IMG/VR virus record: IMGVR_UViG_3300025929_000012
Span: 32,001 to 96,000 of that record
Source: a virus
Reading direction: 5' to 3' (one strand)
DNA length: 64,000 nt
Below are positions 5,877 to 59,263 of the stretch, piece after piece (the first letter of the stretch is position 1; the number at the start of each line of letters is the position of its first letter). The position numbers and the translations under genes are program-made. The notes beneath the pieces were generated by a model that had not been told where the DNA came from, ran no database searches, and worked only from the letters and a program-made list of their open reading frames with translations.

Positions 5877-6062
5877 GCACCGTAATGTATCGCGGCTTGG
5901 GCGTGGCGGCGGGGGCTTCACGGCGCGCTGGCTGCCGCGGCCTGGCTAGCGGCACGGGGAACCGCCCGCCGGCCGCGCGGCAGCCAGCACGATGACGCCG
6001 GCGGCGTTCGCGCCGCCGCCGGCTGGCCCCATGATAGGACGCGGCGTGACGGTTCCGCCGCG

Positions 6063-23501: not shown

Positions 23502-23936
23502 TCAGTTGCTCACTTCGATGAGGTACTGGCAAACAAAACTGAACCTGTCTGCGTCGTCAGGCTCCCCTGACAGCGGCGCTGGTGCCCCCGACAGCCGGTG
23601 CGCGGTCACGATCACCTGGCCGGACGGCAGCGTCACCGGGTAGGCCGCGGCGAAGATGAGGGCATCGAGGCGGTGGGCGAGCGCCTCAGCGGCGGACTGG
23701 GCGCCCGGGGAGCCGTCGCCGCCCTGCGGCCCCCGTACGCGGGCCTGGAAGCCGCACACGTCGGTGGCGCCCTCAAGGCGGTACCCGGCCCCGGGGGTCG
23801 GCGTGATCACGCACACCTGGTCAGGGCTATCGGGGATGTACGGGCCGAGGTAGAACGGGACGCCGGTCTCCTGGTTAGAGTCCCACCCGCCGAGGGTCGA
23901 AAGCCACGAGATCAACGCTGCGGACGGGACGGGCAT
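23502..23936 (-). CDS. Tail terminator
   Basis: PDSPDQVCVIT...FQARVRG...DDADR; position. Confidence 0.8.
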   Translation of the reverse strand: MPVPSAALISWLSTLGGWDSNQETGVPFYLGPYIPDSPDQVCVITPTPGAGYRLEGATDVCGFQARVRGPQGGDGSPGAQSAAEALAHRLDALIFAAAYPVTLPSGQVIVTAHRLSGAPAPLSGEPDDADRFSFVCQYLIEVSN

Positions 23937-25351: not shown

Positions 25352-25738
25352 ATGACACTTCACGATGAGCTAACAACCGAGGTCCGCCGTATCAACTGGG
25401 GCTGGTTCGGGGAGCCATGGCCGTCAGGCATCTGCTACGGCGACGACGGCCGGCTGCTGGAGGAGATGCGCAAGCCGTTCCCCGCAGGTGAGAACTGCCT
25501 GTACTGCGATGAGCCGTTCGACGAGGCCGCCGGTGATTCCGGGCAGGCGAGACCGCTCACCGGGCCGTCCGGCCGGTCAGAGATCCGCCATGTCCACAAG
25601 GAGTGCGGGCTCCGTGAGGTGACCGGTTCGGTTGCCTGCCTTGAAGGCCACCACCGGCACGACACGGGGCAGTCCCGGCGGCAGGAGGCGCTTGCAGCAT
25701 GGGCGTGGGTTCAGGAGCACGGGACGGCGGGCGGATGA
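25352..25738 (+). CDS. Hypothetical Zn-binding protein
   Basis: CLYC...HKECGLR; TACGGT 6 nt before ATG. Confidence 0.75.
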   Translation: MTLHDELTTEVRRINWGWFGEPWPSGICYGDDGRLLEEMRKPFPAGENCLYCDEPFDEAAGDSGQARPLTGPSGRSEIRHVHKECGLREVTGSVACLEGHHRHDTGQSRRQEALAAWAWVQEHGTAGG

Positions 25739-25944
25739 CCGGCGACACGGCGGCGCAGACTGAATCGCGGTCCGTGCCCGCCTTCCTGGTGCGGAACGTG
25801 CAGGAGCTAGCCTTCAGGATCGCGCAGGACCCGTACGCATGGCAGGTGGCCAGCGACCTGCGCAAGCTCGGGCTTGAGGTAGCGCTCCAGGTCCAGCCGC
25901 TCAGAAGCCCCGGCTCCACAGGAAGCGGAGCTGTTTCGCCGTGA
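25735..25944 (+). CDS. Hypothetical protein
   Basis: ATGA overlap. Confidence 0.55.
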   Translation: MTGDTAAQTESRSVPAFLVRNVQELAFRIAQDPYAWQVASDLRKLGLEVALQVQPLRSPGSTGSGAVSP

Positions 25945-26399
25945 ACCGTGACGGCACGGGGTGATGCAGCCGGTAAAGCGCCTTCAGTTCCTCTTCGGAC
26001 AGGCGATGCTGACGCGGGGGGCGGTCGTAGACGGTGACGCCGTCACTAGTCACGCTCGGGTGGCCGGAGGCCCGCAGGTTGGCGTACAAGACCGGAGCCC
26101 TGGTTGCGACCCCGCCCTCTTCGGCAAGGTTCTCCATGCTCTCAGCAAGCGACGCCTCGCCGCCATCCTTAAGCAGCCGGTCAGCGTACGCCTGAAGGTA
26201 GCGGGGGTGGTTGTCTAGCAGCGGCTGGGAGAGGTACAGCGCCTGCCCGCCCCTGGGATGCCTTAGGTCCAGGCCCTCGGGTAAGTGCTGGTAGCGCGCG
26301 TACATCTAAAATCTGGTCGACAACTACACTGCCGACCAGATCGCCGCTACCAACGATTTCCTTCAGGGCATCGATGCGCTCGCCAAAGGTGGAAGCCAT
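25901..26399 (-). CDS. Head-tail joining/tail completion protein, split by a 7-nt and a 6-nt TTA-initiated insert
   Basis: First 30 codons (...GSVVVDQI) in one frame, YARYQH[LP]EGLDLRHPRGGQALYL in another. Confidence 0.75.
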
Positions 26400-26457
26400 G
26401 ACCCCCTATCACCTCCCCTCAGCGACTGAGGCGAGCCGCGCGGACGCGGCGCTGGCC

Positions 26458-26667
26458 GTGATCTTCAGCAACCCGTGCGCCTGCCCGGAACGCCACGCGG
26501 GCAGCCCGGACGGCGCTTGTGGGCTCCGGGCTGCGAATACGATCAGTCACGCCGGAGCGGACCTCGCGGTGTGCATCCCCTGCGTGCGGTGCCTGCTTGA
26601 CGTAGAATTCGCGGTACCCCCGGGGCGCGCAAGCGGGTCAGCGAGCAGGCGCCTGCGGACTGGCTAG
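26458..26667 (+). CDS. Possible small Cys-rich protein
   Basis: CxC..H..C..CxxCxxC; no clear RBS or -10. Confidence 0.35.
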   Translation: MIFSNPCACPERHAGSPDGACGLRAANTISHAGADLAVCIPCVRCLLDVEFAVPPGRASGSASRRLRTG

Positions 26668-27162: not shown

Positions 27163-27672
27163 TCACCGCCACCCGTCAGCGAGCCGTGAACCCGGTGCCC
27201 CGGCTGGCATGATGCCGCCCCGGCCGTCGGGTTCGGTGCCGCTGTCTTCCCAGGTGAAGATCCTCGGCAGCCGGTTGACGACCTTCCCTGGACGGTCAAC
27301 GGGGTCAGCGGGGCCGGTGGGCGCGACGTCGATCCTTCCCGCCGCCACGTCCTTGAGCGTCGAGATGGCGTCAAGATAACCCAGGTAGACCGGGTCCATT
27401 GGCGAAAGGTCTTTGCCTTTCCTGTACGTTAGCGTTCCGTAAAACGTGCCGATCTGGATGGTGCACGTTTTTACGAGGTCGGGGACCGTCACCGTGGGGT
27501 TGGCGGCATCCACGGCGTAACTCGTGCCGACGTAACTCGAAACCTTGGCGCTGGCCTGGGCGATCGCCGCCGAGAGCTGGTCATCGCCGAGCTGCGCGCA
27601 AGTCCCGGTTCCGGCGTCGGTACCTGCGACGTTGGCCCGGATGTCGCTTGGCAGACAATACATGGCGGCCAT
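27163..27672 (-). CDS. Head-tail adaptor (Mu gp36/DUF1320-like)
   Basis: MYCLPSDIR...AIAQASAKVSSYVG...Y.DAISTLKDVAAGRI. Confidence 0.8.
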   Translation of the reverse strand: MAAMYCLPSDIRANVAGTDAGTGTCAQLGDDQLSAAIAQASAKVSSYVGTSYAVDAANPTVTVPDLVKTCTIQIGTFYGTLTYRKGKDLSPMDPVYLGYLDAISTLKDVAAGRIDVAPTGPADPVDRPGKVVNRLPRIFTWEDSGTEPDGRGGIMPAGAPGSRLADGWR

Positions 27673-31774: not shown

Positions 31775-33058
31775 CTAGATGCCAGTGCGGCGGCGGAACT
31801 CCGAGACGAGCGCGGCACGGTCCTGCGCGGCCTTCTCCTCCGCCTGGCGCTCCGCGTCCGCGCTGAAGTCCAGGGGGGTGCCGAGCTCGCCGGACAGGTC
31901 CAGCATCCTGACTGTCTGCCCGACCTCCTTCAGTACCTTCCGCACGATCGCCCCGGCGTCGATGGAGGAGCCGTTGGACAGTTCCACGACGTGGCCCTCA
32001 CCTTCGAGGACGGGCCGGGCGAGGTCGGTGATCCTGGGGGGGATGCCGTACTCGCGGGAGTACCAGTCGCGTTCCTTCTCGAACGCGGCACGGTTGAGCG
32101 CCTGGGTGACGCGGGCCAGTTCCAGGGACGTTTCCTCGGCGCGGCTGTTGGCGAGGTCAATCTGCGCCTGCGCCTCAGCGGACAGGGAAGCCCCGGCGGT
32201 GACAGGCTCCCGGTCGCCTTCCTTGTCGCCCCCGGCCCCGCCGTCACCGCTTGTGCCGTCGCCTTCCCCCTCGCCGTCTTCGGGGAGGGAGTCGATGAGC
32301 TCCTGCAGCTGCTCATCAGTCAGCTGGTCATCAGCGCCTTCCCCTGCGGCGGTTTCCCCCCCGGCGGCGAGGACGGCGTTGAACTGGTCGTCGGGGAGGT
32401 CCAGCAGCCGGGCTAGCCGGGCCTCCTGCGCGTCTGTGAGTGCCATGCGGTGTTCCTCCTGCGTGGGAGTGCCGGGTTCGGCTGGCGGCTGTGATGCGGG
32501 CGGGGGCGGCGGCTCAGGGGCCTGCCCTGGCGGGGCGTACTGCTCGGCGGTCAGGTCGAGTACCTCGCCGTCGCCGTCGTTGGCGGCCTCGATCGCCTGC
32601 CACGGGCGCATGCCGGTGATGCGGGGGTCGAGGGTGCCGAGGACGTGCTGGATCGCGGCGGGGAAGAACGCGCCGTCAGCGCGGTGGTAGTCCTCCACGA
32701 TGCGGGCTGAGACGCCGAGCGCCGGGTTCTTCCGCAGCACCTCATCGCCGTCCTCGGTGGCGGCGAGGATCAGGTCGAGGCCGTCGTCGGTGGCCTCGAA
32801 GCCGCGGACCTCGCCGCGGAACCGCTCCGGGTCGTTGGTGTGGGAGTTGTCGCCGGGAGCGAGCTGGAACGGCACCTGGTCGAATGCCCGCGCATTGAAG
32901 GCTTTGGCAAGGCCGGCGAGGTACTCGGGCGTGAACGCGATCTTGCGGCCCTTGTACGAGATCTCGCCGACGGGGAGAATCTGCTTCCGCCACAGGCGGG
33001 ACGCGCCGGACGGGCGGGCCTTCCCCCGGTCTACCGGGGTGAGCATGGTCGTGGTCAC
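31775..33058 (-). CDS. Prohead protease/scaffold (Mu I-like)
   Basis: WRKQILPVG...H..DPE..RG...GVSARI...HVLGTLDPRITGM; acidic coiled-coil C-terminus; GGAGG RBS before GTG 33058. Confidence 0.85.
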   Translation of the reverse strand: MTTTMLTPVDRGKARPSGASRLWRKQILPVGEISYKGRKIAFTPEYLAGLAKAFNARAFDQVPFQLAPGDNSHTNDPERFRGEVRGFEATDDGLDLILAATEDGDEVLRKNPALGVSARIVEDYHRADGAFFPAAIQHVLGTLDPRITGMRPWQAIEAANDGDGEVLDLTAEQYAPPGQAPEPPPPPASQPPAEPGTPTQEEHRMALTDAQEARLARLLDLPDDQFNAVLAAGGETAAGEGADDQLTDEQLQELIDSLPEDGEGEGDGTSGDGGAGGDKEGDREPVTAGASLSAEAQAQIDLANSRAEETSLELARVTQALNRAAFEKERDWYSREYGIPPRITDLARPVLEGEGHVVELSNGSSIDAGAIVRKVLKEVGQTVRMLDLSGELGTPLDFSADAERQAEEKAAQDRAALVSEFRRRTGI

Positions 33059-39148: not shown

Positions 39149-40648
39149 CTTCGCCGTAACCAGCAGGTCATTCGCCTGCCACTCAAAACCGGGAGGGCAC
39201 AGGATCGTCGCCCGCACCCGGGTGCGCTGCGCAGGCCCCATGCTGTTGATCACCTCAGCAGTCCGTTCCGGGGTGTCATGGCGGGTGAACTGCGGCGGGC
39301 GGGGAGTGAACTGGCCGCCTTCCCGCACCCCCGGGGGGACGCGCTCAGCGGGGGCGATGAGGCGGCGGACCTCTGGGGCGGGCACCGTGAGGGCGTCAGC
39401 GATGGCGAGGTCGAGGAACCGGCCGCCGTCCCCGCTGAGCCTGATGGCGTTCGCTTGCCTGTCCAGTGCCCCGGCCTGCGCCCGCAGCGCCTTCGCCTTG
39501 CCTGTGAGGGCCGCCACCGTGGCCCGGTTCCGCGCCAGCGTCCGCCGCGGTGCCCCCGCGGAGGACTTGGTTGCCGCGTTCCCGGCCTTCCTCGGGGCCG
39601 CCTTCGCCAGCGCCGCCGTAGCCTTCGCCGCCGCCGTCGGGGCCACCTTCCTGGCCGCCTTGGCCGCTGCCGTGGCCTTCACCTGCGCCGCGATAACCTT
39701 CTGAATGCCGGCGATCTGCTGGTCGATGCCCGCTGCCTTCACCCGGTCGGCGTTCGCCTGGGCGTGGAGGGCATCCTTCCGCGCCCTGGGCGCCAGCGGG
39801 GCCGACGCTTTCGGCGTGCCCGGCTTCGGGGTACCCGGCTTGACGGCTGCCGTCTTCGGCGTGGTCGGCTTCGCCTTGGCGGGAGTTGTTCCCGTGCCTC
39901 CCGCCGGCTTAGCGGTGCCGACTGCCTTCGCCTTCGGCTTCGCGGCGGCCTTCTTCTTCACGGGCGCGTCCGGGAGCGGGTGCGCCGCGATCGCCGCAGC
40001 AGCCGCCGCCTCCGTCGCCGCCGCAGTCCCCGGCTTCGGCTTCCCCTTCGGCGCGTTCAGTGCCTTCAGCAGCCCCGCCAGCTCCTGCCGCTGCGCCGGG
40101 GTCGCCTTACCTGTCGCCACCAGGTGCTGCAGGTGGGCAATGTGGGCCATGTGCAGGGCATGCTGCTGCGCGGCTGTCTTGCCTGCCGTGCCGCCCGAGT
40201 TCGTGCCCTTCCCCGACGTGGTCCCGAACTGGCCGCCGGCCGGTGAACCTGCCGGGACATGAGGCGGCACGTAGCCGAGGTCGATGGACTGCCCGTTCCA
40301 GGTGAGCGCGATCACGGCACCGCCCTCGTTCGCATGGGCGTGGGCGACAGCGGACTTCGCGGCGAGGTCAGCCAGCGCCGCCTGAGCCGCCGCGACAACC
40401 TCAGGGTGGGCCTTCCCGCCGCCCCGCGCCCACCTGCGGATAGCGCCCCAGGTGATCGCGTACGCCACGGCGGGCGGGTGACCGGAGCGGATGAGAGCAT
40501 CCCTGACGTGCTGAAAGTACGGCAGTTATGGAGGCAGCTCCATCCCCTTCACGTGGTAAAGGCCGGGACCGCCCGGTTTCCCCGCCGGGGCTGGCGTCAC
40601 TGCCAGCCGCGCGGTATCCGCGGACATCTCGATTGGTGCTGCGCTCAC
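39146..40648 (-). CDS. Ala/Lys-rich putative internal head protein with in-frame TAA at codon 41
   Basis: GTG 40648 with GGGGGTGA RBS is in frame with ORF 39146-40468; TAA at 40526-40528. Confidence 0.7.
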
Positions 40649-44418: not shown

Positions 44419-45948
44419 CTAAGCCTTCGGTATCCCGAGGGTGGGCATCCCGAACGGCTCGGCGATGTTCTCCGGCAGCGGCTCACGGCCCGCCTGGGCG
44501 AGGGCCTGCTGCGCCACCCGGGTAGCAGCCGCCGTCCCCCCCGCCAGCCGCCCCAGTGACGCCGCTGCTTCCTTCGGCATCCCCGGCGGCGCCGTCGCCA
44601 CCACGTGGGCCTCCCGGTCCCTAGCGCCCTGCTGCACGATCTGCGACACCGCGTCCACGTCCAGGTTCAAGACCGTCGCCAGCCGTTCCGTGATCAGGTC
44701 GAGGATCGCGGGCGGCACCTGCAGCGACGGGGCAACGGCCAGCTCCTGGAACAGGCCCACCAGCTGGGATGACGACTCGTCGGTGAGCGCCCCGAACTTG
44801 AACACCGGGTAGGCGGCGGACGGCCCGAAGTTCAATGTGACTAGCGGCGCTATCACGTCATGGGTGAGGGACTCGGCGATCTCCGCCGAGATGGCCTGCC
44901 GGGACTTCAGGAAGAACGCGCTCTGGTCCTGGGACAAGGCGAGGCTGCCCTTGCCCATGGACGCGAGGCTGGACAGCCCCGTGAAGCCTGCGAGAACCGA
45001 TGCGGTCTGCCACGTCTCCAGGAACGCGAGCGCATCGGCAAATTGTGAGGCGCCTTTCCCTGAGCTTTCGAGCACCTCGAAGTCTTTTGCGCCCTGCGGG
45101 CCTCTTGTGAATCCCGCCACCCCGGAAGCCCGCATTGAGGCGACGTCATCAGCTCGCGCATTGGCCTCACGCTGATCCTGGCCGTACACGATCACTTTAG
45201 GCAACGACTGTTGCTCAAGGAACGCCAGCCACAAAAAGACCAACTTTAGCTTCGTTTTGTAACACCAGTAACAGACCGCTAGCTCGGACGTGCCGGTTAG
45301 CGGCTCACGGTGCCGGCCATTTACGTGGACGAACGAGCGCACCTTCGGGATGTCCACCCAGCCCGGCGTGGACCCCGGTCTCGTGCTCAGCGCCTGGCCG
45401 CCGAGCAGGAACAACTGCTGGCGGAAGCCCATCTCAGCGGCCGTCTTCGGATCGCGGCGCAGCTCGCACGTGGCGGTCGGGCGGTGCGCGAGCTTCTCGT
45501 AGGTGACCGCGCCGTCTTCCTCGCGAATCCGGAAAATCTTTTCGTGAAAGGATTTTCTATAGATTTGCGCTGACGTGACTTGCCCGATGACATCCTGCAG
45601 CGGCGTCTTCATGCCGCCGGACGTGGCGGGGGCGAACAGCGCGGAGTTGCAAAGCTCTGCCTCGCCGCTGTCGCCCTTGGACGGCTCGATCGCCCGCGAT
45701 GCCTGCCTGATGGGCAGGGTCAGGACGGCCTCAAGCGCAGACGCCTGGCCGTCCTGGTCAAGCATCTTCGCAACGTCACGACTTGACCACTCTCCGTAGT
45801 CGAGTACCGAGCCGTCACCGAACGTGGAGAACATGCGGGTCATGGAGTCGTACTGAGTCCCGAGTTCCCCGCCGAGGATCTGGTTGCGAGTCGCGGGCTT
45901 CAGGTCGGGGAACTTGACGATGCGCGCCGTCTGCGGGTCGGGAGCCAC
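44419..45948 (-). CDS. Portal protein (DUF935/Mu gp29-like)
   Basis: 509 aa after TerL; GSLALSQDQS...IAPLVTLNFG. Confidence 0.9.
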   Translation of the reverse strand: MAPDPQTARIVKFPDLKPATRNQILGGELGTQYDSMTRMFSTFGDGSVLDYGEWSSRDVAKMLDQDGQASALEAVLTLPIRQASRAIEPSKGDSGEAELCNSALFAPATSGGMKTPLQDVIGQVTSAQIYRKSFHEKIFRIREEDGAVTYEKLAHRPTATCELRRDPKTAAEMGFRQQLFLLGGQALSTRPGSTPGWVDIPKVRSFVHVNGRHREPLTGTSELAVCYWCYKTKLKLVFLWLAFLEQQSLPKVIVYGQDQREANARADDVASMRASGVAGFTRGPQGAKDFEVLESSGKGASQFADALAFLETWQTASVLAGFTGLSSLASMGKGSLALSQDQSAFFLKSRQAISAEIAESLTHDVIAPLVTLNFGPSAAYPVFKFGALTDESSSQLVGLFQELAVAPSLQVPPAILDLITERLATVLNLDVDAVSQIVQQGARDREAHVVATAPPGMPKEAAASLGRLAGGTAAATRVAQQALAQAGREPLPENIAEPFGMPTLGIPKA

Positions 45949-58367: not shown

Positions 58368-59263
58368 TCCCCGGCCGCTGACTGCCCGGCAGCGCGGGCT
58401 TCCTTGACTCGCTTCACCAGCGGCGCGACGCGCTTCGGGGTGCCGCCGTACTCGTCCATGAAGGCGCGGACGGTGAGGTCCAGGCCGGCCCGCTCGCGCT
58501 CATCGGCGAGCTTCATCGCCAGGGCCCACATCTCGTCGTCGGCCATGGGGGGCTTGCGCATCAGGTCCGTGACGGTCGCCAGCGGGCCCGTCTCGTCCTC
58601 CGGCGGCTCGATGGCGAGGGGGGTGGCAAGGGGGAGCGCGGCCTGTCCGGCGTTACCCTCCGGGAGGCCCTGCGCGTTACCCGCGAGGCCCCCGGACGCG
58701 TTACCCCAGCCGTTACCCTCCCTGTTACCCCCGGCGTTACCCTGGCTGTTACCCCGGCTGTTACCCGGCCTGGAGAACCGGGCCGCGAGCGCCTCACGCT
58801 CCGCCTCAAGCCGCCGCGCCTCCTGCCGGGCCTCCCACCGGGCGAGGTCCGCAGACTGGGATGCCGAGTACATGAGGACCCCGACTGCCGTGAGGGCCGC
58901 CAGGTCCAGGCCGTAGGACGCGACGCCCGCCGGCACGGTGCCCATCCCCGGCGTGAGGACCTTGATGCCGGACGACGCGGACGCGAACATCAGGGCCGCG
59001 GCGATCCCGCCCACCCATATCTTCAGGGTCCAGTGGAAATTCACGTGCGCGGCCACGTGGGACAGGATCGCCACCAGCAGCGGCACCGCGAGGCCGACTG
59101 TCCAGCCGATTAGCGCGGGCATGTGCCCGAGCTTCACGTGCTGGTAAATGTTCAGCTCAACCGAAATGGTCAGCGCGATGACCGTGCCCGCCTCGCACGC
59201 GTACGCCACGTCCTTGCGGAGCGTCTTCGGACGCGGGTCGTGTAGCGCCTTAATGTCACTCAA
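58364..59263 (-). CDS. Spd/DUF2637-like membrane protein
   Basis: 4 TM, coiled coil, GNx repeats, C-terminal HTH-like segment. Confidence 0.65.
   Translation of the reverse strand: MSDIKALHDPRPKTLRKDVAYACEAGTVIALTISVELNIYQHVKLGHMPALIGWTVGLAVPLLVAILSHVAAHVNFHWTLKIWVGGIAAALMFASASSGIKVLTPGMGTVPAGVASYGLDLAALTAVGVLMYSASQSADLARWEARQEARRLEAEREALAARFSRPGNSRGNSQGNAGGNREGNGWGNASGGLAGNAQGLPEGNAGQAALPLATPLAIEPPEDETGPLATVTDLMRKPPMADDEMWALAMKLADERERAGLDLTVRAFMDEYGGTPKRVAPLVKRVKEARAAGQSAAGE
58652..58766 (+). repeat. GTTACCC array, 12/24-bp period
   Basis: 8 exact copies at 58652, 58676, 58700, 58712, 58724, 58736, 58748, 58760. Confidence 0.9.

Follow-up and report, generated by a model that had tools for sequence, protein, structure and literature searches.

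Programmed bypassing is among the rarest departures from standard decoding, and its published natural cases are T4 gene 60 and relatives, the byps of yeast mitochondria, and a tentative UUA-led terminase case comprising three Streptomyces phage or prophage genes. In the terminase genes of phiHau3 (g6/g7/g8) and of the StrepC.1 and S. catenulae prophages, which amount to 3/100 terminase genes, UUA-led bypass of 10- or 7-nucleotide (nt) inserts was proposed (Smith et al. 2013; Antonov et al. 2023, PMC10732093), and a bypass junction peptide was reported in E. coli for the first phiHau3 gap with its UUA changed to UAA (PMC10732093). For T4 gene 60, a 5' stem-loop is thought to drive forward movement (10.1101/2024.12.09.627546). 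The byps of Magnusiomyces capitatus mitochondria are many short inserts whose take-off and landing codons match and which place a rare or unassigned codon in the A site (PMC10732093), and hops at hungry codons have been described in E. coli (Weiss 1987; Kane 1992; Gallant and Lindsley; refs 47-52 of PMC10732093). Here we describe a candidate of this kind in the virus record IMGVR_UViG_3300025929_000012 of IMG/VR (110 kb, 70.7% G+C), of which we analysed the 64,000 nt at positions 32,001 to 96,000, called the window below. It lies in a putative neck-module gene whose full-length protein (~161-163 amino acids, aa) is probably made by short-range translational bypassing of a 7-nt non-coding gap, a reading to which we give a probability of about 0.77.

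The gene is on the minus strand of the window, where positions 26318-26285 read directly as GAC CAG ATT TTA G ATG TAC GCG CGC TAC CAG CAC. Two open reading frames (ORFs) meet at this point. ORF1 (26399..26181, minus strand) encodes 72 aa and loses all similarity to the family from the TTA onward, while ORF2 (26305..25901, minus strand) encodes 134 aa, is in the +1 frame relative to ORF1 and has a TAG immediately 5' of its ATG. When the TTA is decoded normally, translation ends early, in a 72-aa product with its stop 42 codons on. The sequence-only reading of this locus, made ahead of any database search, had given both the letters of the minus strand and the 72-aa dead end with its stop at 26181; the former proved correct in every detail on direct reading, and the latter agrees with the ORF translation. 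Since the first 30 residues of ORF1 and ORF2 itself match successive parts of one homologue (residues 1-30 and 30-161), the comparison indicates that this is one gene written in two frames. Its parts are these:

26409 to 26416, minus strand: Shine-Dalgarno sequence GGAGGTGA of the neck gene, read directly; GGAGG-type counterparts stand upstream of the starts in gapped relatives.
26310 to 26399, minus strand: coding segment 1, codons 1-30 (MASTFGERIDALKEIVGSGDLVGSVVVDQI), the last of which is the take-off codon ATT (26310-26312); 73% identity to residues 1-30 of homologue P0004.
26303 to 26309, minus strand: the 7-nt gap TTAGATG, consisting of TTA (26307-26309), G (26306) and the landing triplet ATG (26303-26305), as placed by dynamic programming (DP).
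25901 to 26302, minus strand: coding segment 2, from TAC (26300-26302) to TGA (25901-25903); 89% identity to residues 30-161 of P0004.
26181 to 26309, minus strand: dead end of the zero frame, in which the TTA opens a run of 42 out-of-frame codons closed by TGA (26181-26183).
26279 to 26284, minus strand: the other TTA-led insert, TTACCC; its 6 nt keep the frame, it separates His36 from Glu37, and no in-frame homologue has it.

Coding segment 2 has 133 codons as written and 131 if the second insert is skipped too. The position of TTACCC is the site at which relatives carry the frame-breaking gaps TTAC, TTACCCGG and TTACCCGA, and in the window this insert is either decoded as Leu-Pro or skipped as well.

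A protein search with ORF2 identified 205 homologues, the best of them 90% identical, and most of these are single proteins of ~161 aa that start MASTFGDRID...VVVDQxYARYQHEGLD. We built a profile from 60 in-frame homologues and aligned the DNA of the related loci to it by DP, with skipped blocks allowed. The segment from residue 17 to residue 47 is 31 residues long in 59/60 of the in-frame homologues, and removal of TTAGATG from the window gene restores a perfect 31-residue family segment, VVVDQI-YARYQH / VVVDQIYARYQH. The blocks that the alignment skipped in the window were ATT[TTAGATG]TAC and CAC[TTACCC]GAG (take-off codon, skipped block in brackets, codon at which reading resumes), and the first is exactly the solution that the sequence-only reading had proposed when it took the family pattern to be VVVDQI-YARYQH. 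In every gapped locus, removal of one or two short blocks likewise gave a perfect 31-residue segment. ORF1, used as a query, matched only two upstream ORFs of other gapped relatives; the similarity was confined to the N-terminal part, and the tails were not conserved. A search of the genome contigs with ORF2 only, and a search of the viral contigs for the DNA pattern of the junction, each returned no match.

We compared 37 related loci drawn from viral and metagenome contigs of independent samples. The gene is broken in 20/37 of them, and also in a prophage of Amycolatopsis taiwanensis. These loci carry 17 distinct alleles, with gaps of 4, 5, 6, 7, 8, 10, 11 or 13 nt, all within codons 29-39 and at three adjacent sites. 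When the gap is read from the codon boundary, its first codon is TTA in 14/17 alleles and AGA in the remaining 3/17. Site A, after codon 30, includes ATT[TTAGGGCATT]TAC, GTC[TTAAAGGGTC]TAC, GTT[TTAGCGGGTG]TAC and GTA[AGACCCCGGTC]TAT; site B, after codons 34-36, includes CAG[TTACCGCTCAG]CAC, CAG[TTACCCGG]CAT, CAG[AGACGCGCGG]CAT and CAT[TTAC]GAG; and site C, after codon 39, has CTT[TTAGCTA]GAC. The gap lengths span both non-zero frame classes, so that no single +1 or -1 slip accounts for them, and in alleles beginning TTAG a ribosome in the +1 frame meets a TAG at once. The prophage allele comes from a cultured strain, A. taiwanensis DSM 45107 (L048:3001-3415, NZ_KI912602.1), where the same neck gene has GTA[TTACCCGGTC]TAC at that site. 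The allele corresponds to the AGA ones, with TTA in place of AGA, and has the same 5' hairpin (described below), and it makes the strain a tractable natural system in which experiments are possible. At the protein level, shortened or out-of-frame gene calls (P0033, P0053, P0065 and P0122) imply further alleles, for instance GTT[TTACCCGGTC]TAC in P0033, and at least one such gap (P0065) may start without TTA or AGA.

Every gapped locus has retained the start codon and the full downstream ORF, and a GGAGG-type ribosome-binding site is visible in most. For codons 17-29, which lie 5' of the gaps, the ratio of nonsynonymous to synonymous polymorphism (pN/pS) was 0.31 in gapped loci versus 0.41 in in-frame loci, and the pattern as a whole indicates that both gene halves are under purifying selection. 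In the protein tree gapped and in-frame sequences are intermixed. A well-supported clade of 9 contains 8 gapped members with 7 different alleles, and the sister loci L010 (4 nt) and L013 (8 nt) have their gaps at adjacent codons. Because the alleles interleave on the tree and turn over within a clade, the series suggests that the presence of a gap is itself favoured, or repeatedly imposed.

The codons that open the gaps are the rarest of this genome. By crude gene calls of the genome, TTA is the rarest sense codon (4/20,856 codons, 0.19 per 1000) and AGA the second-rarest (0.43 per 1000). Two of the four TTAs belong to this one gene, where they stand 9 codons apart, at the two spots at which relatives have gaps, a placement beyond coincidence. 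The in-frame TTAs at 5885 and 33472 were rejected as lying outside real coding sequence. The only tRNA that the phage genome encodes is a tRNA-Ser, and there is no phage tRNA for UUA. Three scans of the whole genome for other gaps led by TTA or AGA yielded nothing but noise and ordinary gene junctions; an AGA candidate at 45932 was discarded as being out of frame with its gene and having an antisense ORF behind it.

The far ends of the gaps follow a rule as well. We scored a landing as pairable where, in the last triplet of the gap, the first two codon positions can pair (Watson-Crick or G.U) with the tRNA that reads the take-off codon. This held for 15/17 alleles (chance 0.158 per allele, P ~1e-10), while control triplets slid by 1-2 nt were pairable in only 0-4/17. 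At sites A and C, the first triplet past the take-off codon to begin with the same two bases is the landing. In the window, ATG is the sole triplet of the gap whose first two positions can pair with the tRNA reading ATT. The idea of an ATT/ATG re-pairing, put forward in the sequence-only reading from this single junction, thus fits a family-wide rule.

RNA folding predicts a strong hairpin just 5' of the gap and an outer extension around it:

26310 to 26342, minus strand: predicted 5' stem-loop with a 14-base-pair (bp) stem and a 5-nt loop, its 3' arm ending in the take-off codon; -20.5 kcal/mol, z score -3.8, 0/200 shuffles as stable.
26289 to 26300, minus strand: 3' arm of a predicted outer helix; its partner is 26342-26352, and together they enclose a 10-nt internal loop that contains the gap; 91 nt in all, -38.6 kcal/mol, z score -3.1.

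The outer helix cannot form while a ribosome covers its sequence. For the 54 nt ending at the take-off codon, the mean z score against shuffles was -2.49 in gapped loci (n=15) versus -0.49 and -0.18 in the equivalent windows of in-frame loci (P 6e-5, with kinship ignored). An uninterrupted helix of 9-14 bp ends in codon 30 in 6/6 site-A alleles; its counterpart in 16 in-frame sequences measures 3-9 bp, with a mean of 4.25 (P 3e-4, kinship again ignored). The 5' arm of this helix differs by lineage, being taken from codons 14-17 or from codons 20-23. A comparison of gapped with in-frame loci over a fixed 42-nt window had shown no difference in hairpins (P 0.69) and is superseded by the windows anchored at the take-off codon. 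The hairpin may act as a stimulator of the hop.

Taken together, these observations lead us to propose the following course of events. Ribosomes would start at the ATG at 26399 and read 30 codons, which would bring peptidyl-tRNA-Ile onto AUU in the P site and the scarce codon UUA into the A site, where the ribosome would stall. The stalled peptidyl-tRNA would release AUU and the mRNA would slide by 7 nt, perhaps with help from the 14-bp hairpin, which has the take-off codon at the end of its 3' arm and would fold again; the tRNA would then re-pair on AUG through the first two positions, and decoding would restart at UAC. A hop of this kind should yield EIVGSGDLVGSVVVDQIYAR as its tryptic junction peptide. 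Decoding of UUA as Leu would instead lead to the 72-aa dead-end peptide, and the yield of neck protein would be expected to fall as the UUA-reading tRNA rises. In Streptomyces the reader of UUA is the bldA tRNA, a tRNA of late growth. The hop, its efficiency and its dependence on the tRNA level of the host are all inferred here from sequence comparison. If output does depend on a bldA-type tRNA, the gap would be a simple phage readout of the developmental state of the host.

The net change of frame in the window is +1, and a frameshift could in principle give it: UUA and GAU would be decoded (Leu-Asp) and a +1 shift on GAU-G would give VVVDQILD-YARYQH, or another single-nt slip might take place at the hungry codon. 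Rare-codon pauses favour +1 slips, as at prfB- and Ty1-type sites, and the 4- and 5-nt alleles CAT[TTAC]GAG and TAC[TTAGC]CAG, in which landing is poor or possible only via G.U, are hard to distinguish from such an event. However, a +1 slip at AUU-UUA runs into UAG immediately and would require AUU to re-pair on UUU, which pairs poorly; GAU-G is not slippery; and the extra residues would fall in a segment of invariant length (59/60 in-frame homologues, as given above). Across the series, the 8- and 11-nt gaps would need the opposite shift, and the matched landing triplets would serve no purpose. We therefore consider frameshifting very unlikely. We think it just as improbable that the locus makes two products, with a functional 134-aa protein initiated at the ATG at 26305 and the first 30 codons either dispensable or forming a separate small peptide. 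That ATG stands exactly at the junction, and gene callers predict 134-aa proteins beginning MYARYQH in the window and in four relatives with 78-90% identity. Yet direct reading of the minus strand found no purine-rich stretch upstream of the ATG, nor is there a nearby upstream stop for coupling, and a start codon is missing from the junction in most other alleles. Segment 1 has a start codon and Shine-Dalgarno sequence of its own and its codons are under purifying selection; residues 1-29 contribute a helix and a strand to the predicted fold (predicted local distance difference test, pLDDT, 79-90); and the upstream ORFs have out-of-frame tails that lack conservation. The sequence-only reading had doubted independent initiation for want of a ribosome-binding site, and the wider comparison strengthens that doubt. 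Least credible of all is a frameshift in a decaying prophage or an indel of assembly or sequencing, even though the record is a metagenome-derived virus contig. The insertion is an extra 7 nt of mixed sequence and no homopolymer error, conserved ORFs are intact on both sides where random decay would leave 1-nt indels all over the gene, and 20 loci from different samples plus an isolate have gaps confined to codons 29-39 that are all TTA- or AGA-led. The sequencing indel, which the earlier reading had listed among the outcomes that would overturn it, is excluded by this recurrence of the gap design in independent metagenomes and one isolate genome. Transcriptional slippage was rejected, there being no long homopolymer, and so was removal at the RNA level, since no known process excises 4-13 nt.

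Several observations nevertheless weigh against bypassing. The landing match in the window covers only 2/3 positions, with a G.G clash at the wobble position. Two alleles break the landing rule, namely TAC[TTAGC]CAG and the in-frame CAC[TTACCC]GAG of the window itself. The former (5 nt) is found at codon 34 in the distant relatives L029 and L040, and its pairable TAG at +4 would resume out of frame; for the latter, if it is skipped, the landing CCC pairs poorly and the better-pairing TAC at +4 lands out of frame. If instead the second, in-frame TTA is read as Leu, the same gene would need UUA to be skipped at one place and read at another. Several site-B gaps contain earlier pairable triplets once G.U pairing is allowed, and the hairpin statistics and tree-based counts ignore shared ancestry. 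Finally, the closest relatives of the gene (P0001, P0002, P0005 and P0008, 78-90% identical) are called as 134-aa proteins starting MYARYQH. Homologues of that form, or homologues that are naturally two genes, would have spoken against a joined protein; most homologues are single proteins of ~161 aa, and these four have the contrary form on the face of it. An LP or LL insert is common to them, and most likely they carry the same gap. Genes of such a layout are routinely mis-called, as shortened proteins (134 aa here) or as pseudogenes.

The sequence-only reading had also named this a head-tail completion gene, and that assignment is partly supported. Neither ORF1, ORF2 nor the full-length homologue P0004 has a direct family match in Pfam or PHROGs. 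The major head protein is encoded upstream of this gene, which stands between a Mu gp36-like head-tail adaptor (27163-27672; PF07030, phrog_195) and a tail-terminator-like gene (23502-23936), and relatives have the same order. The family profile matches a 117-aa ORF of L020 with an hhalign probability of 98.6%; that ORF, which is followed by a tail terminator, in turn matches phrog_5 ('tail completion or Neck1', 1.2e-7) and, weakly and below the cut-off, PF04883 (HK97-gp10_like, 0.024). The AlphaFold2 (AF2) model has a pLDDT of 84.6, with the helix and strand of residues 1-29 within the fold. It gave no convincing match in Foldseek searches of pdb and viral models beyond one unnamed homologue, nor in a wide VIA-align search (best Z 4.5). 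Gene order and the remote profile link make a neck-module label (Neck1/HK97 gp10-like) plausible, while a direct family match and a fold match were not obtained. The protein resembles HK97 gp10-like/Neck1 proteins in its place between adaptor and tail terminator and in the profile link through the L020 ORF, but differs in that the family of the window has an extra C-terminal half of ~85 aa and no clear structural match.

The same hop could exist for another reason, the gaps being scars or immunity marks of homing-endonuclease traffic upstream and the hop merely rescuing the gene. On this reading a free-standing homing enzyme encoded nearby would cut targets that have no gap, as with T4 gene 60 and mobA. 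Extra DNA of >60 nt is present in the interval between adaptor and neck genes in 12/14 gapped versus 3/9 in-frame lineages (Fisher P 0.023). The spacer of L009 encodes an HNH_3 endonuclease (E 1.2e-8) of which L010 has a 51% identical homologue:

L009:2100-2783 and L010:2266-2775, minus strand: free-standing HNH_3 gene, antisense, between the adaptor and neck genes; both are gapped relatives.

The gaps are 90-115 nt into the gene, a placement similar to that of T4 gene 60 (codon 46; PMC5009743). Against this, a nuclease was seen in only 2/14 gapped lineages, and the gapped loci L011 and L014 are almost without spacer (-1 and 21 nt). No endonuclease is recognisable beside the gene of the window, where the nearest HNH gene is 2.4 kb away and the spacer holds an ORF of 117 aa and, antisense, a conserved Cys-rich ORF; no nuclease match was obtained for either. 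The strict use of TTA and AGA, together with the dedicated hairpin, also suggests selection on the hop itself. We consider it doubtful that the hop is a rescue of this sort, and an origin of the T4 mobA kind is possible but weakly supported.

Other ORFs were noted around the neck gene. The antisense Cys-rich ORF (26374-26667, plus strand; 97 aa) overlaps the start of the neck gene head-to-head by 26 nt and has the pattern CxCPxxH...C...CxPCxxC; homologues 30-48% identical occupy the same place in L005, L013, L017 and L040, and there is no family match. In L039, which is in frame, an AP2-domain protein is encoded upstream. Directly downstream of the neck gene in the window is a 128-aa antisense ORF (25352-25738, plus strand), one of the interleaving antisense cassettes of the late operon; its 58% identical homologue has the same position in L037 and a weak match to DUF7445. 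Just downstream of the neck gene of L013, a 208-aa antisense ORF (L013:3684-4307, minus strand) matches the BTG family PF07742 (E 1.3e-10, above the cut-off). BTG, a eukaryote-type anti-proliferative domain, would not be expected in a phage. Elsewhere in the window, an in-frame TAA (40526-40528, minus strand) interrupts CTG CCT CCA TAA CTG CCG TAC at 40517-40543; upstream of it is a 40-codon ORF with its own start (GTG 40648), in frame with a downstream 440-aa ORF, and tblastn searches with either side of the TAA found no phage homologues. A tandem array at 58698-58766 (plus strand) has a 12-nt period, ~5.7 copies and super-periods of 24 and 36 nt, its unit being GTTACCC followed by 5 variable bases. 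Further TTACCC units are found at 58653 and 58677, and the array looks like an iteron or protein-binding array.

A broader view, which we hold tentatively and at somewhat less than even odds, is that the family maintains a hop cassette: an 11-codon hot spot near the beginning of the neck gene in which gaps of 4-13 nt have been repeatedly gained, lost and rebuilt, serving as an evolvable valve that ties virion completion to the rare-tRNA state of the host (bldA-type timing). Homing-endonuclease traffic upstream perhaps seeded such a cassette, and bypassing of the phiHau3 kind and of the T4 gene 60 kind would then be united. Each gap may comprise a UUA or AGA trigger, a matched landing triplet and a dedicated 5' hairpin. 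In any case, the alleles constitute a natural mutational series, with two trigger codons and graded landing matches, through which rules of take-off, sliding and landing become directly testable.

Among the known systems, hungry-codon hops in E. coli resemble the proposed event in that a peptidyl-tRNA hops a few nt forward to a matching triplet while the A site is starved. Those hops are low-level errors in laboratory constructs, whereas the arrangement described here is conserved, appears to be under selection and has a hairpin in its gapped alleles. The byps of Magnusiomyces capitatus are likewise non-coding inserts in protein genes with matched take-off and landing codons. They are, however, mitochondrial, mobile and hairpin-forming, with lengths of 27-55 nt, while the gaps reported here have 4-13 nt, which leaves no room for folding, and occur only in a single hot spot of 11 codons in one phage gene family. 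T4 gene 60 shares with the window gene take-off and landing triplets for the same peptidyl-tRNA, a slow or non-decodable codon in the A site, a 5' stem-loop and a gap ~30-46 codons into the gene, and some of the relatives examined here also have an upstream HNH gene. It differs in that the gap of the window is 7 nt and not 50, with the sense codon TTA at take-off and no stop; this gap is too short to hold a hairpin, and its landing match is imperfect. Unlike T4 gene 60 and the mobA cassette, no endonuclease adjoins the gene of the window.

The greatest likeness is to phiHau3, whose gaps we read directly as GGC[TTACTCCGGT]AAG and TCT[TTAACGGTCC]ACG, in the same grammar as the neck-gene gaps. 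Both are short frame-breaking inserts absent from homologues, whose flanks abut at that point; both have an in-frame TTA right after the last conserved codon and end in a triplet resembling that codon; and both entail an early end of the zero frame, predicted RNA structure around the site, and a high-GC actinophage in which TTA is almost unused. The differences are that a neck-module gene is concerned here and not a terminase, with 17 alleles in 20/37 loci versus 3/100 terminase genes; that the gaps are 4-13 nt long and of both non-zero frame classes, some relatives being AGA-led; that middle G.U landing pairs occur (CAG to CGG) and no internal Shine-Dalgarno sequence is evident; and that the present case comes from sequence comparison. 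Our literature searches returned no other gene family with UUA-led bypass and no AGA-led case. The feature of the window belongs with the phiHau3-type UUA-led bypass, itself still tentative, in what is here a new gene family. New relative to the published cases are the series across the family, AGA as a trigger and a hairpin specific to gapped alleles.

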